From contig NC_043014.1 in assembly GCF_006345805.1 (NCBI RefSeq), forward strand, positions 25,792,001 to 25,856,000: 64,000 nt of DNA, written 5' to 3'. The notes beneath the pieces were generated by a model. It was not told the origin of the DNA and made no database searches. It saw nothing but the letters and a program-made list of their open reading frames with translations. Shown one piece after another: positions 4,505-40,086 of this stretch. The first letter of the stretch is position 1. Each line of letters begins with the position of its first letter. The stretch comes from Octopus sinensis. Lineage: Eukaryota. A program made the position numbers and the translations under genes.

Positions 4505-4768
4505 ATATATATGAAAAAACAAGTCAAGATAGAAAATGCTAAAATAATTTTATAAAGAACATTTCAGTACCGGTTTCGGTCATTTGAGACCTTTTCAACT
4601 GTAACTATTAAATAATTGAATTTAGAAAAATTAAAAGAAAAGTTTTTCTAAATTGAATTATTTAATAGTTACAGTTGAAAAAGTCTCAAATGACCGAAAC
4701 CCGTACTGAAATGTTCTTTATAACATTATTTTAGCATTTTCTATCTTGACTTGTTTTTTCATATATAT
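4505..4768. repeat. ~265-bp near-perfect fold-back; each arm has a hammerhead-like motif (Penelope-type terminus)
   Basis: Arms ~4505-4630 and ~4642-4768 are reverse complements with few mismatches. Confidence 0.85.
4565..4601 (-). ncRNA. Minimal type-I hammerhead ribozyme motif, U3-A8 variant (mirror copy 4672-4708 +)
   Basis: cag TTGAAAA GGTC-tcaaat-GACC GAA AC-CG-GT A ctg. Confidence 0.6.
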
Positions 4769-5059
4769 CAACTCGTATGTCCCTTTTCATCCATATATAT
4801 ATACACACACACACACACACACACACGCACACACACACACACACACACATATATATATCTGCATCCATCTATATATCTTATATATAATGATGGATTCTCT
4901 TGGTATGAATGACAAATGAGGGTTCAGTAAAATAGTGTTGATCATGTTCTAGGGACATGGTGTCTCTTGAGACCTGCTGGTGCTTTTCAAACCTTTTGGC
5001 AAATGGAACAAATTGAAAACTCAAGTTTGCTTGAGTGCTCGTGGATTATTTACTATGTG

Positions 5060-7350
5060 TTTTCTTGAGTGCATGGCAAGGCCTACTTTGCTTTGTGCTA
5101 CAAAACAACAATGATGAGTAAGGTTTACATGTAGAAGAGCAGCGTTTTGCCAGCATGCCTTCATACTTGTAGGAAGTCGGTCCCGATGTTGGAGTCAACT
5201 TTACTCAAATCTTTGAACTGAGGAGGAGCTGGACTGGCACCAGATCCGGTGTTCTGTTGCTTTGTTTCCCGAGGAAGAAAAAGGAATGGTGCATTGCTTC
5301 AAATTGTCTTTGAAGCACAAGAGTGGCCTTCTGTTGGGAATTGGCCAGATAGAAGTTGCTTTGGAATTCCGATATCACTCACATGTGAAAGATGACCATA
5401 CCATCTAAACTGAATTTTGATGAGGATGGCTTTAGTACCCGATAAGTTGCTACCTCACTGTTATGAATATGGTCACTTAGTTTTATGTTGGAGATGATAC
5501 ACAAACATTGCATATGAAAAGCTTTAAGCTGGTTGGTATGCTTTTCATATGAAGTCCATGATTCATCACCATAAAGCAATTTTGTCAAAATCACTGACTT
5601 TCACCTTCGACAATATGTCCTGTCTGTTCCAAAGCCTATGATGAAGCTTACCAAAAGCCGAACTAGCCTTCCTAATTCTGGGCTCAATTTCTTTATCCAT
5701 CTTAGCATCATTAGACACAATGGAACCAAGATAAGTGAAGGAAGAAACAGTTTTTAATGCTTTCCCATCAACATATACAGTAGGAACAACAGTGGGAAAA
5801 TGGTCACGAATGGGCTGATGGACAAACTCAGTTTTCTTGATATTGATGGTAAGACCAAAATCCTTTGATGCAAGTGAGTTGTTTAGAATCCATTACATGT
5901 CCTCAACAGTGTGTGCTACATGTGCACAATCATCTGTGAAGAGCTAATGTTGAACTGTTTGCACCAAAGTCTTAGTTTTTGCTTTAAAATGCTGTTGGTT
6001 GAACAAGCCACCACCAGTTCTGTACTCAAACTTTACTCATTCTTTAACACCCTTGAACGCTGATTCCAACATGATGGAGAAATACAAAGCAAATAAGAGT
6101 GGTGCAAGAACACAGTCTTGTTTTGTCCCAATTGAGACTGTGAATAAATCAAACACTGCCCTGCTAGATCTGACAGAAGCCATTATCCGTTCATGGAAAG
6201 AAATGATGACATTGAGCATCTCTTTGGGAACACCTAGCTTTCTAAGGACAACCTAAAGAGCATCCCTAGATATGGTATTGAAAGCTTTAGTTAGATGTAC
6301 AAAAGTTACAAAAAGGTTTTGGTTGTGCTCATGAGCCTTTCCCTGCAGCTGTCTTAGGCTAAAAATCATATCCACTATACCTATACCAGCCCAAAATCCA
6401 CACAGATTCAGGCAACACTAAGCATCATTTAATCTGTTTAAGATAACTCATCTGAGGATCTTTTTGGCAACACACAAAAGAGAAATACCTCTATGGTTGT
6501 CACATTCACATTTGTTGCCTATGTGCTTATAAATCTGGACAATAGATTCCCAGATTAAGAGATCACATGACTTGTTCAGCAGGGGACTGCTACCACATTT
6601 ATATATCTTGGCTGGTATGCAATCATTCCGGACAACTTTCCATTTGAGAGCTGTTTTATGGCCTACTTTTATTTTTATCTCAGCATTTGATGGAGCAGCT
6701 GAGAGTTCTTCAAGGGCAGGCCTCTGTAGCAGGTTCTTCAACAATTGAGTTTATATTCAGAACATTTGAAAAATGCTCTGTCCAACATTTTGTGATCTTT
6801 TTATCTGTCAGAAGATTACCCTCCATTGAAAGTATGGAAGTTGAGCCACCAGACACAGGTCCAAAAACGAGAGATGTTTGGATCACTTGAGTCGAACCAA
6901 TCTTGGTGTTTCCTCTTAACATAGCCGGGTGTTTCACAAGATGACTCAAATACAACATTTTTAAAAGCAGACCACAATGATTCAGTATCTATATTGTCTG
7001 AGATGCCAGCAAGTTTGTTGTCACAGTTTGTTTGAAATGAGGTTAAATTGTCATTGCTCCTCAGCTTTGTCATGTCCACTTTTCAAATTGGTTAAGTGTG
7101 ATTGTTACAAATAGGACTGCAGATAGTAAAATTCACCTTTGATCATATCAGTCTATGATCAGACCAACACTCCCCAATGAAGAAAGAATATGTTACTTGG
7201 ACATCTTCCCTCATGGAAGATGTCATGTTTATGAAATCAATGAGGTGATAATGGTTTGATTGGGGATGCTTCCAGTTAGTTTTGTGGTGTTTGGGGAGTT
7301 GGAAAATAGTATTGGTAATCAAAAGTCCATACTCACTGCATAGTATTCAA
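5060..7350 (-). mobile_element. RTE-clade LINE, degenerate (EN end to RT to C-terminus)
   Basis: Fragments GYVKRKHQDWFD, WTEHFSNVLN, CDNHRGISLLCVAKKI, GTKQDCVLAPLLFALYFS, LLYGDESWT; many stops and frameshifts. Confidence 0.85.
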
Positions 7351-7454
7351 ATACAAGGGGCATTTTCCTTGTTTCTACTTGTCTCTCTCTCTCTCTCTTG
7401 TTTACTCTTGTGGGTTTGAGGTCATTGTAAATTCTTGGCAGAGAAGAAGAAAAC

Positions 7455-7920
7455 CACTATCATCATCATCATATAAAGTCCGTTGTCCATGCTGGCATGG
7501 GTTGGACTGTTTGACGGGGCTGGCATGCTGGAAGGCTGCACCAGACTCCAGTCTGATTTGGCATGTTTTTTTACAGCTGGATACCCTTCCTAATACTAAC
7601 CACTCCTGGGTGCTTCTACATGTCACTGGCACTGGTGCCATTTGCATGACACCAGTATCTGCCATGACTGCGATTTTGCTTGGCTTGATGGGTCTTCTCA
7701 AGCACAACATAATGTCAAAGGTCTCAGTCATTGCCTCCATGAGGCCAAATGCTCAAAAGGAACTCAGCCACTTTTCCCCCATGAAGCCCAGTGCTTGGAA
7801 GGAACTCAGCCACTTTGTCTCCATGTGACTCAATGCTTGAAAGGTGTTCTTTACATGCCACCAGCACAGGAGTGAGTTACTAGGACTATGATTTCACTTG
7901 GCTTGATGGATGAGATTTTG
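7455..7920 (-). mobile_element. RTE-type 3' UTR/tail fragment ending in (ATG)n
   Basis: Same tail family as 13180-13475, 15155-15700, 22500-22830, 22950-23450 and 25413-25640. Confidence 0.75.
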
Positions 7921-8900
7921 CATCAGCCACAGATTTGGTTTGTGGCACTCAGCAAGCTGCCCCTCAGGAGTTTCCAGTTGGCCTCTATGTCATAAGTCTG
8001 TAGCTCCTCCTCCCTTTCAACAAATTTTTCAATTGAGATATCCGTAAATCTGTGACCATGTGAAGGTTCCTTAAGCTTCCAAATCCTTCTTTTTCCAATT
8101 GGTTTACTTCTTGGCATCCTTCTAGCCTGGAGTCTAAAGTCACTCATGATTAGTTTATGCTGTGCGGGGGGGGGGGTGTACATTCTTCACCAGTGAGGGT
8201 CTTTGTATTTAGGAGCAACCATGCATCTTGCTGTCTGGTAAGAATGTAATTGATCTGACTTGCACAGACACCTGATTGCTGTGTTATCAGGTGACTGGCT
8301 GACTTCCTGAAGTTGGTTTTGCAAATCAGAAGGTTATTTGCATCACAGAACTCCAGTAGCCTTGTTCTCTCTTCATTTTGGAATCCAATTCCATGGCCCT
8401 CATGCACACCATGGAAGATTCCAGGCTGCGGTCTGACATGTCCATTGAAATTCCCAGCCACAAAGAGGAGATCATTGTCACTTGTTTGAGGTAGCCTGCA
8501 GAAGAATATCATAAAAGTGGTCCTTCACTTAATTTGGTAGGCCTGCTTGAGGGACATAGGCAGAGATAATTGTCACTATACTATTCAGTAAGACTAGACT
8601 AAGCTTAAGCACTCTATCACACACTCTGACTACCTCTATGACCTTATCCACCCATTTCTCTGCAAGAAGTATACCCACACCATCTACCCCGTTACTCTTA
8701 CCTTTCCAGAAGATTTTATACCTATGTGTCTTGCCTGTGAGGTACCTGGCTGAAGCTCTTCTCCACCTTACATCTTGGATGCAACATATATCAACAAGCC
8801 TCCATTCAAGCATCTCAATGATCTCACTAGACCTACCTTTCAATGTTCCTACATTGATAGTGCCAACTCTGAAAACTTGGAAAGAGATGTGGGAAGGAGT
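7921..8900 (-). mobile_element. RTE LINE APE-endonuclease fragment
   Basis: VGTINVGTLKG, DICCIQDVRW, GVGILLAEKW, IISAYVPQ, AGNFNGHV, QINYIL, QHKLIMSDF. Confidence 0.85.
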
Positions 8901-38925: not shown

Positions 38926-39148
38926 GAACAAAAACGCAATAGAGGACTATAAAACATTTGGACAGATAGACGATACAAAGGTGGGCTGGAAGAACAACAA
39001 TTAGGACAGGGGAAACAAGGTCGGGGTCATTCGTGGCATTCTTTCTTCAGTCAAGTTACCAAATATCGTAATTATTGTTTTTCCCTGTCTGCCTTTGTAT
39101 CGTCTATCTGTCCTGATGTTTTATTGTCCTCTATTACGTTTTAGTTCA
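38926..39148. repeat. Imperfect inverted repeat; related segments at 40355-40580 and 41115-41340
   Basis: gatagacgatacaaag.. arms in opposite orientation; homologous blocks downstream. Confidence 0.7.
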
Positions 39149-39294
39149 ATTTTTTATATTTATATATACATATAGTGGCATAGGTACACACTTGTGCTCA
39201 CCTATATATATATATATATATATTATATATATATATATATATATATATATATATATGTGTGTGTGTGTGTGGTGTGTGTGTGTGTGTGTATACA

Positions 39295-39680
39295 TGAGGT
39301 GCAGGAGTTGGTGTGTTGTAAGAGGGTTGCTTCTCAACCACATGGTTCTGGGTTTAGTCCTACTGTGTGGCAGCTTGAGCTTGTATCTGTAGTATAGCCT
39401 CGGGCCGGCCAATGCCTTGGGAGTGGATTTGGTAGAAAGAAACTGAAAGAAGCCCGTCGTGTATATATATATATATATATATATATATATATATATATAT
39501 ATATATGTGTGTGTGTGTGTGTGTGTAGGTATTTGCGTGTCTGTATTTGTCCTCCGTTGGCGTGTTTACGTCCATGTAACCTAGCGGTTCGGCAAAAGAA
39601 ACCGATAGAATAAGTACTAGGCTTACAAATACGTCCCGGGGTCAAATGACTAAAACGAGTGAAAGAAAAAGAATAAAAAG
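39295..39680 (+). mobile_element. tRNA-derived SINE
   Basis: Same family as 37396-37783. Confidence 0.8.
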
Positions 39681-39874
39681 TGTGTATATATATATTATAT
39701 ATATACACATATACATATATAAATAAATAAATAAATATATATATATATATATATTATATATATATATATATATATATATATATATATATATATATATATA
39801 TATATATATATATTACGGAGATGTACTTGCATAGCAAGTGATTTGATCTGAGATCGTGTGCTGAAACGAAAACA

Positions 39875-40086
39875 ATTGTAGCGTGGAAGGTGTTTGTAAG
39901 CCATTTAAGAAACACACAAAAGCCGTTCGATTCACTTCAACATTTAAGTTTAATTTGTCAGTGAACAGGTTGCGGTCTTAGAGCGACGAAATTATTTTGA
40001 GAAATTAAACTTAAATGTTGAAGTGAATCGAACGGCTTTTGTGTGTTTCTTAAGTGGCGTACAAACACCTTCCATGCTGCGATTGT
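39875..40086. repeat. Fold-back with a hammerhead motif (G3-C8 variant, 39952-40006 +) at its apex
   Basis: aatttgtca GTGAACA g-gttgc..gcgac GAA A-ttat-T T tgagaaatt inside ~85-bp inverted arms. Confidence 0.7.

Follow-up and report, generated by a model that had tools for sequence, protein, structure and literature searches.

Hammerhead motifs in an Octopus sinensis genome stretch mostly mark the 3′ ends of PLE families, one of which carries an A6U core

The six hammerhead motifs recognized in a 64,000-nucleotide stretch of Octopus sinensis contig NC_043014.1 (the window) have a genuine type-I hammerhead shape and greatly exceed chance expectation, but they are not a free-standing collection of ribozymes. 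Short repeat stubs carry five of the six close to their 3′ ends, and four of these stubs belong to Penelope-like element (PLE) families with endonuclease genes in their longer copies. The five are probably slow, dimer- or protein-assisted self-cleaving hammerheads that would trim the element RNA. A6U, the most unusual core variant, is unrelated to the 3-8 covariation through which the motifs were originally grouped. The family that bears it, family E, might remain able to cleave, or its motif might by now serve as a folding switch.

The first-pass annotation had listed six cores with hammerhead topology, and a descriptor scan located all of them in the window. Each motif has the type-I order with three closed helices, GAAA and a UH cleavage site; G12-A13-A14-A15.1, U16.1 and H17 are likewise present in all six, being imposed by the descriptor. 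Cores start on the minus strand at 4598 (A), 12300 (B), 17030 (C), 19301 (D) and 28457 (E), and the sole plus-strand core starts at 39961 (F). The coordinates given originally correspond to the ends of motifs or of cores. A short palindromic helix III is found in window motifs A, C, D and E and in most family F copies, while helix III of motif B is a hairpin rather than a palindrome. Two further motifs had gone unnoted: a U3-A8 hammerhead (13016..13060, plus strand, core at 13022) that lies 46 nt before a TA run and has a sister copy whose palindrome is unbroken (L084), and a canonical hammerhead (38422..38490, plus strand, core at 38426).

A relaxed descriptor, tuned with motifs that were already known, gave 14 matches in the window. 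Twelve of these had a Watson-Crick 3-8 pair together with A6, against a mean of 0.095 and a maximum of 2 in 200 block-wise dinucleotide shuffles. As an independent check, stretches spaced evenly over the genome and totalling 800 kb were scanned; this unselected DNA contained 20 matches versus 4.17 in 93 shuffles, and its C3-G8 matches numbered 14 versus 0.09 expected. The excess of relaxed motifs over shuffled sequence holds both inside and outside the window. Standard searches of the window returned little. The textbook descriptor (loop III of at least 3 nt) yielded one match, which was none of the six motifs, and Rfam gave zero matches at the gathering score. A weak HH9 match covered motif A only (4546-4612; 23.5 bits versus 52 for gathering), and the rest of the Rfam scan by E-value was mostly microsatellite and miRNA noise.

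All six motifs have a Watson-Crick 3-8 pair, as do 27 of 31 motif clusters, versus 16.3 under permutation. The proposed covariation at these positions is only partly borne out, as two of the six cores are swapped (U3-A8 at 4598 and G3-C8 at 39961) and the other four are not. Cores 12300 and 19301 are canonical, 17030 carries U4C, and 28457 carries A6U with an extra base after A9; canonical U4 and A6 thus occur together in A, B, D and F but not in C (C4) or E (U6). Swaps are also a minority in the unselected DNA, where 14 of 20 matches were C3-G8 and only two appeared to be real swaps. Core frequencies within families were counted from exact matches in which seven core positions were left free, and reversed-pattern controls gave 0 matches. 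The family consensuses keep the pair, with U3-A8 in 82 of the 85 exact matches of family A and G3-C8 in 99 of 100 among the matches listed for family F (764 exact matches).

These controls bear on whether the motifs are chance matches or by-products of fold-back DNA. The window itself had served to tune the descriptor, free single-strand folding gave z-scores from −1.8 to +0.7 with no gain over shuffles, the full three-way junction was absent from every minimum-energy fold of the motifs, and the F copy in the window owes the long extension of its stem I to the inversion. However, a native 7-bp stem I persists in F copies that lack the inversion, C3-G8 matches are in large excess in unselected DNA, and the motifs occupy the position expected in PLEs. 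We give this explanation almost no credence, since the shuffle controls and the 3-8 permutation test already refute the chance reading. The idea of a diverse, under-annotated ribozyme set was right in that the motifs exceed shuffles and are missed by Rfam, but the set consists of one retrozyme-like tandem and, for the rest, hammerheads of PLE pseudo-LTRs.

Four motifs (A, C, E and F) are 3′ stubs of PLE families, and each lies on the same strand, 3′ of an RT and GIY-YIG ORF; B is weakly linked, and no such ORF was found for D, which is tandem. Fold-backs and TA flanks, one or the other of which had been claimed for every motif, were indeed seen. The motif at 19301 is the final copy in a tandem of six. 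The family A stub is a fold-back (4512..4761) with TA repeats at both ends and an axis near 4636. Hammerhead A (4565..4601, minus strand) has the U3-A8 core, a 4-bp stem II, the palindromic helix III and A17 at 4568, and in a damaged second copy (4672..4708, plus strand) the first stem II pair and the palindrome are broken. Longer family A copies have a GIY-YIG ORF upstream (L013, E 1.2e-5). The family B fold-back stub (12116..12601; arms 12116-12296 and 12421-12601), whose plus arm breaks off within the core, contains hammerhead B (12251..12307, minus strand), with canonical C3-G8, a 7-bp stem I and the hairpin helix III; its link to a PLE ORF was seen in one of 30 loci (L129).

Hammerhead C (16951..17035, minus strand) combines U4C with an extra base after A9, a long stem II and the palindromic helix III, and sits 49 nt before (TA)n. 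All 30 fetched family C loci were identical over 131 nt. A C-terminal piece of the family's endonuclease ORF lies upstream (17237..17464, minus strand); the ORF encodes 854 aa with YRDD and a YIG motif, and Pfam matched no RT or GIY-YIG domain in it. A nearby GIY-YIG fold-back (17485-18755) was rejected as part of motif C, having about 30% identity to the family C protein. The family F fold-back stub (39814..40085; arms 39873-39960 and 39998-40085) has TA at both ends, and only its left arm carries a tail, 59 nt in length. Hammerhead F (39958..40000, plus strand) has the G3-C8 core, an extra G after A9 and a 5-bp stem II, and the window copy differs by two substitutions from most family copies. 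Longer family F copies have GIY-YIG ORFs upstream (L315, E 2e-5; L347, E 1.4e-4), and the notion that family F is a tiny ORF-less element was dropped.

Two motifs about 4.4 kb apart flank the ORF in family E (L345) and in family A (L349, whose 3′ motif is the L027 match). Such a pair was not seen for B, C or F among 18 long stretches. The stubs display 5′ truncation with an inverted copy, a one-sided tail and a microsatellite target, insertion marks that have been described for PLEs (bioRxiv 2021.04.23.441226). The CX2-5CxxC linker precedes GIY-YIG in the translated ORFs of A, E and F and is absent in C, suggesting that A, E and F are Neptune-type, although Nematis shares this linker. The six motifs are unrelated in sequence, which would fit host-domesticated regulatory ribozymes of independent origin; however, all five motifs searched are dispersed repeats that stop at TA runs, and decay substitutions are present in the copies within the window, making domestication very improbable.

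We propose that the motifs act within the PLE life cycle. Judging from the PLE literature, the element protein would nick AT-rich DNA and reverse transcription would begin 50-140 nt downstream of where the RNA is cleaved. Uncleaved template would then be copied back through the motif, usually with an early stop and often with the addition of an inverted copy, and the resulting stubs would include a complete hammerhead next to (TA)n. Helix III, being self-complementary, would form between two RNAs, and U3-A8 and G3-C8 would preserve the catalytic 3-8 pair. Cleavage would be slower with U4C or A6U, but the motif would still be under selection.

Family E is the most unusual case. Its TA-flanked, putatively Neptune-type 3′ stub (28329..28571, minus strand) contains hammerhead E (28425..28462, minus strand), with A6U, an extra A after A9, a 4-bp stem II, U17 at 28430 and a 4-nt palindrome as helix III. 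A register in which U3 falls one base further on was rejected, as it breaks stem II. Only 164 of 14,638 exact matches have A6, and U6 was present in 99 of 100 among the matches listed. Copies chosen by their tail alone had U6 in all 25 that were readable. In these copies all 31 sites of the core, stems and loop were monomorphic; positions 7 and 17 were polymorphic, as were 19 of 68 flank sites, a count inflated by T-run indels. N17 was U in 11, A in 15 and G in 0 of 26 tail-picked copies, and C once among 80 strict matches, whereas all four bases occur at N7. RVT_1 was detected upstream (L343, E 8.4e-8) with a sub-threshold GIY-YIG (E 0.02). In L345 two U6 motifs 4,452 bp apart surround the RT and endonuclease frames, and a single U6 core lies 3′ of a related ORF in a separate record (L361). 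The motif also occurs in organisms B-E, with depth peaking over it, which we take to indicate presence only.

One explanation for the shared U6 is a neutral founder lesion whose apparent conservation reflects youth. The best copies match the one in the window at 99% identity, and a single founder would account for U6. On the other hand, N7 states follow subfamilies that have their own flank differences, and deviation from the majority base was 10.5-15.6% in the flanks but 1.1% in the core and 2.7% in the stems. Fixation of the 31 sites gave a Fisher p of 0.0006, the sites being chosen post hoc, and 0.017 when N7 and N17 were included. A neutral origin is thus unlikely.

It is a serious possibility, if somewhat short of probable, that A6U abolished catalysis and that the motif was kept as a non-cutting structure such as a protein-binding or folding signal. 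Single CUGA changes impair cleavage, with low activity in the available part of a mutational scan (PMC9901934), a natural A6C hammerhead cut at less than 0.1 per minute (PMC3088659, in part), and Naiad PLEs spread without hammerheads (bioRxiv 2021.04.23.441226). Moreover, the U6 monomer is predicted to adopt an alternative pairing of U4-G5-U6 with A15.1-C15.2-G16.2, the predicted probability of G5-C15.2 being 0.48-0.98 with U6 (four N7 states) versus 0.00-0.07 with A6. However, C3, G8, A9, G12 and A13 are unpaired in this alternative fold and are nevertheless fixed, the only positions that vary, N7 and N17, are the freedoms of a working hammerhead, and U6 also occurs 3′ of the related ORF in L361.

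A more speculative account is that U6 is an evolved safety catch, in which the monomer would be locked inactive and a second copy or the element's own protein would free cutting. U6 would then have been selected and reached at least twice, and the natural G3-C8 family alongside it would bring to three the 3-8 pairs in one genome. What has to be explained is that a supposedly crippling A6U was fixed while the other constraints of a working core were kept. If family E cuts, both the core consensus and the descriptors used in searches would have to be broadened, and CUGANGA counts would be missing whole families; if it does not cut, the motif would have a further role that is not catalytic. PLE hammerheads are slow cutters and were dispensable for insertion in vitro, and on the question of what they do the A6U family offers a natural experiment.

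Motif D belongs to a tandem array (19061..22130, minus strand; period 542-546 bp, 33% GC) whose neighbouring units are 98-99% alike. It contains six canonical hammerheads, with cores at 19301, 19847, 20392, 20934, 21476 and 22019, and no ORF of 120 aa. A second array, with a 535-bp unit, was found in the unselected genome sample (L193). We regard the tandem, with its unit of about 543 bp, as a probable non-autonomous retrozyme that would depend on the PLE machinery for its movement. Non-LTR retrozymes, in the available parts of their descriptions (PMC7229834; bioRxiv 10.64898/2026.07.22.740005), are also non-coding tandems of low GC (below 45%) with one type-I hammerhead per unit and a proposed mobilization by PLEs. 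Their reported unit is about 150-450 bp, shorter than that of D.

No natural A6U or G3-C8 PLE family was found in the literature searched, to which the 2017 Lunse survey did not belong. That survey (Lunse et al., RNA Biol 14:1499) reportedly concerns short PLE-associated hammerheads that cleave as dimers, by its title the same class, and its alignments may already list A6U or G3-C8. The closest relatives are the PLE pseudo-LTR hammerheads of Cervera and De la Pena (2014; PMC4209133, in part), which share the type-I order, the palindromic helix III and the pseudo-LTR site, and which occur mostly as solo truncated copies and opposite-strand pairs. U3-A8, with about 1,300 matches in S. mansoni, and the extra base after A9 have been in print since that report. 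An Acropora row has the exact architecture of family E but with A6. All 44 alignment rows compared have A6, with 41 C3-G8, 2 U3-A8, 1 U3-G8 and 0 G3-C8, positions that were fixed by their descriptor; in O. sinensis, by contrast, G3-C8, U4C and A6U are family consensus. The Poseidon hammerhead of Anolis (Frangieh et al. 2024; PMC11167929, in part) lies upstream of internal RT starts that define a one-sided tail, and a similar tail is seen here. Insertion in vitro did not need cleavage in that system, and engineered C3G/G8C partly rescued cleavage, whereas the G3-C8 of family F is natural and occurs in at least 764 matches. Natural U3-A8, U4C and the slow A6C were also described by Perreault et al. 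(2011; PMC3088659, in part), but from phage, bacteria and viroids, each as a rare, isolated example, whereas A6U is fixed here in more than 14,000 copies.

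The six cores reported by the first-pass annotation were all present in the window, each closing helices I–III in type-I order. Hammerheads A (core at 4598), B (12300), C (17030), D (19301) and E (28457) lie on the minus strand and F (39961) on the plus strand; B and D are canonical, and the others carry U3-A8 (A), U4C (C), A6U (E) and G3-C8 (F). The window occupies positions 25,792,001-25,856,000 of its contig in a 2.72-Gb animal genome, amid abundant TA microsatellites and transposon debris. Fragments at 25815-27060, 2388-3284, 43839-44462, 33189-34103 and 55213-58569 represent a Pif1 helicase (Helitron-like), two DDE transposases and two LINE-type reverse transcriptases, and 46 copies of a 21-bp tandem repeat with long open frames occupy 62594-63566. 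A short minus-strand frame at 53029-53170, with no Pfam hit, resembles a trypsin-like serine protease exon.

A relaxed hammerhead descriptor gave 14 matches in the window, 12 of which (six from the D tandem) combined A6 with a Watson-Crick 3-8 pair, versus 0.095 in 200 shuffles. Because this descriptor had been tuned on the window itself, it was also applied, under a score cut-off, to unselected genomic DNA sampled at regular intervals as 80 stretches of 10 kb, where 20 matches were observed versus 4.17 expected (93 shuffles). These comprised 14 with C3-G8 (0.09 in shuffles; six from one array), three with G3-C8 (0.12 in shuffles; one belongs to family F and the other two look like noise), one with U3-A8 (0.52 in shuffles) and two with a non-paired 3-8. 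Relaxed motifs exceeded shuffled controls in both samples; hammerhead motifs are real and common in this genome, and 3-8 swaps are a minority.

The annotation had also proposed a diverse, under-annotated ribozyme set with compensatory 3-8 swaps, an interpretation borne out only in part: the covariation held for A and F, and the other four motifs had no swap. Pattern searches for these two families left seven core positions free and required exact matches elsewhere. U3-A8 occurred in 82 of 85 exact matches to family A, and G3-C8 in 99 of the 100 listed among 764 exact matches to family F; both family consensuses keep the pairing. Across 389 overlapping records that total 1.88 Mb of this genome, a sample enriched for the families under search, 342 matches, about 5 of them expected from shuffled DNA, formed 31 clusters: 20 C-G, 6 U-A, 1 G-C and 4 unpaired. 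The 27 paired clusters compare with 16.3 under permutation (0/100,000), but since clusters share descent this is no test of independent events.

The family E pattern returned 14,638 exact matches, and its reversed control none. Among the 100 matches listed, position 6 was T in 99 and C in 1, and position 7 was T in 45, A in 24, C in 16 and G in 15 (hand count). A6 appeared in only 164 matches, across all N7 states, as expected of scattered back-mutations; N7 state tracks subfamilies, each with its own flank differences. To avoid selection by motif, 31 copies were chosen by tail only (30 from a tail search with 15,625 matches, one from the unselected stretches). The core was spanned in 26, five being truncated inside or below it, and U6 was present in 25 of 25 readable copies. 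The core deviated from the majority base by 1.1%, the stems by 2.7%, loop II by 4% and the flanks by 10.5-15.6%. Polymorphism affected 0 of 31 core, stem and loop sites versus 19 of 68 flank sites, the latter inflated by T-run indels (Fisher p = 0.0006; 0.017 once N7 and N17, both polymorphic, are included). Neutral carry-over of the E motif is improbable.

Outside the genome, 80 metagenome loci coding for relatives at ~30-50% identity gave 15 A6 and 2 U6 sense-strand matches. One U6 match (G4 core, long stem II) looks like noise; the other, at 2790-2830 of metagenome contig L361, is a single copy with U3-A8 and U6 lying ~300 nt 3' of a Neptune-type ORF (0.18 expected by shuffle), and a canonical hammerhead lies upstream at 125. 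Because of this distribution A6 is likely the ancestral state, and U6 appears rare and perhaps recurrent. A minus-strand motif in record L228 (8537) has a stem II like that of E, but A6 and C4, and is possibly a sister lineage.

DNA searches with five of the motifs showed each to be a dispersed repeat. Within the window, the predicted cleavage sites of A, C, E and F lie 49-101 nt ahead of a TA run, and the family B tail ends ~125 nt past its site. Upstream on the same strand, longer copies carry GIY-YIG ORFs (A and F), an RT with a weak GIY-YIG (E), or an 854-aa ORF with YRDD and YIG motifs (C) for which Pfam gave no RT or GIY-YIG hit. B was linked to a Penelope-like element (PLE) at only 1 of 30 loci. 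In record L345, two U6 motifs 4,452 bp apart flank frameshifted RT and endonuclease frames. In L350 (555-3116, minus strand), the 854-aa frame joins a PKD segment resembling K319L (below cut-off at E 3.9e-5) in frame to the family C RT-endonuclease ORF, possibly through insertion beside a host exon. A fold-back of a different PLE family (17485-18755) directly adjoins the C stub on the 5' side; the ORF of this fold-back (17950-18564) matches GIY-YIG weakly (E 0.017) and is ~30% identical to the family C protein, and a search of this fold-back for a complete hammerhead found none. Family F copies in L311-L340 have ~1 kb of (CATA)n-rich DNA between ORF and hammerhead, and most end within ~30 nt upstream of stem I.

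What we observed of these families is their anatomy, copy numbers and conservation. Following PMC4209133, PMC6765202 and PMC11167929, the PLE hammerhead RNA would cleave itself, the palindrome would pair two RNAs into a dimer, the element protein would assist cleavage, and reverse transcription would take the path outlined there. A, B, C, D and F likely undergo slow assisted self-cleavage, and C3G/G8C rescue of cleavage is on record (PMC9901934, PMC11167929). Against cleavage, CUGA mutants cut poorly in a deep mutational scan of another hammerhead (PMC9901934), and single-strand folding z-scores of our motifs were weak. For E, residual or assisted cleavage has roughly an even chance, and a non-catalytic role of the motif is a credible though not favored alternative. 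U6 is predicted, weakly since the helix is just 3-4 bp, to add a short helix tying up the core in the monomer.

PMC4209133 already describes the PLE hammerhead class, together with the U3-A8 swap, an additional base following A9 and a palindromic helix III, and PMC3088659 reports natural U3-A8, U4C and A6C. No PLE family naturally carrying A6U or G3-C8 was listed within the literature searched, which did not reach the principal survey of these short hammerheads or one supplement. The interest lies in the A6U family and in the family with natural G3-C8, rather than in the annotation's general claim. Array D, with six hammerheads at 542-546 bp spacing and no ORF, resembles a non-LTR retrozyme, although its unit is longer. 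A second tandem, in L193 (2848-5219), has a 535 bp period and two arms in opposite orientation, with four copies on the plus strand and two on the minus strand. The window copy of F has an inverted arm and a 59-nt tail confined to one side, matching the PLE signature of inverted copy and one-sided tail in bioRxiv 2021.04.23.441226; two internal RT start sites account for such a tail (PMC11167929). The A, E and F ORFs share a CX2-5CxxC linker with Neptune and Nematis elements.
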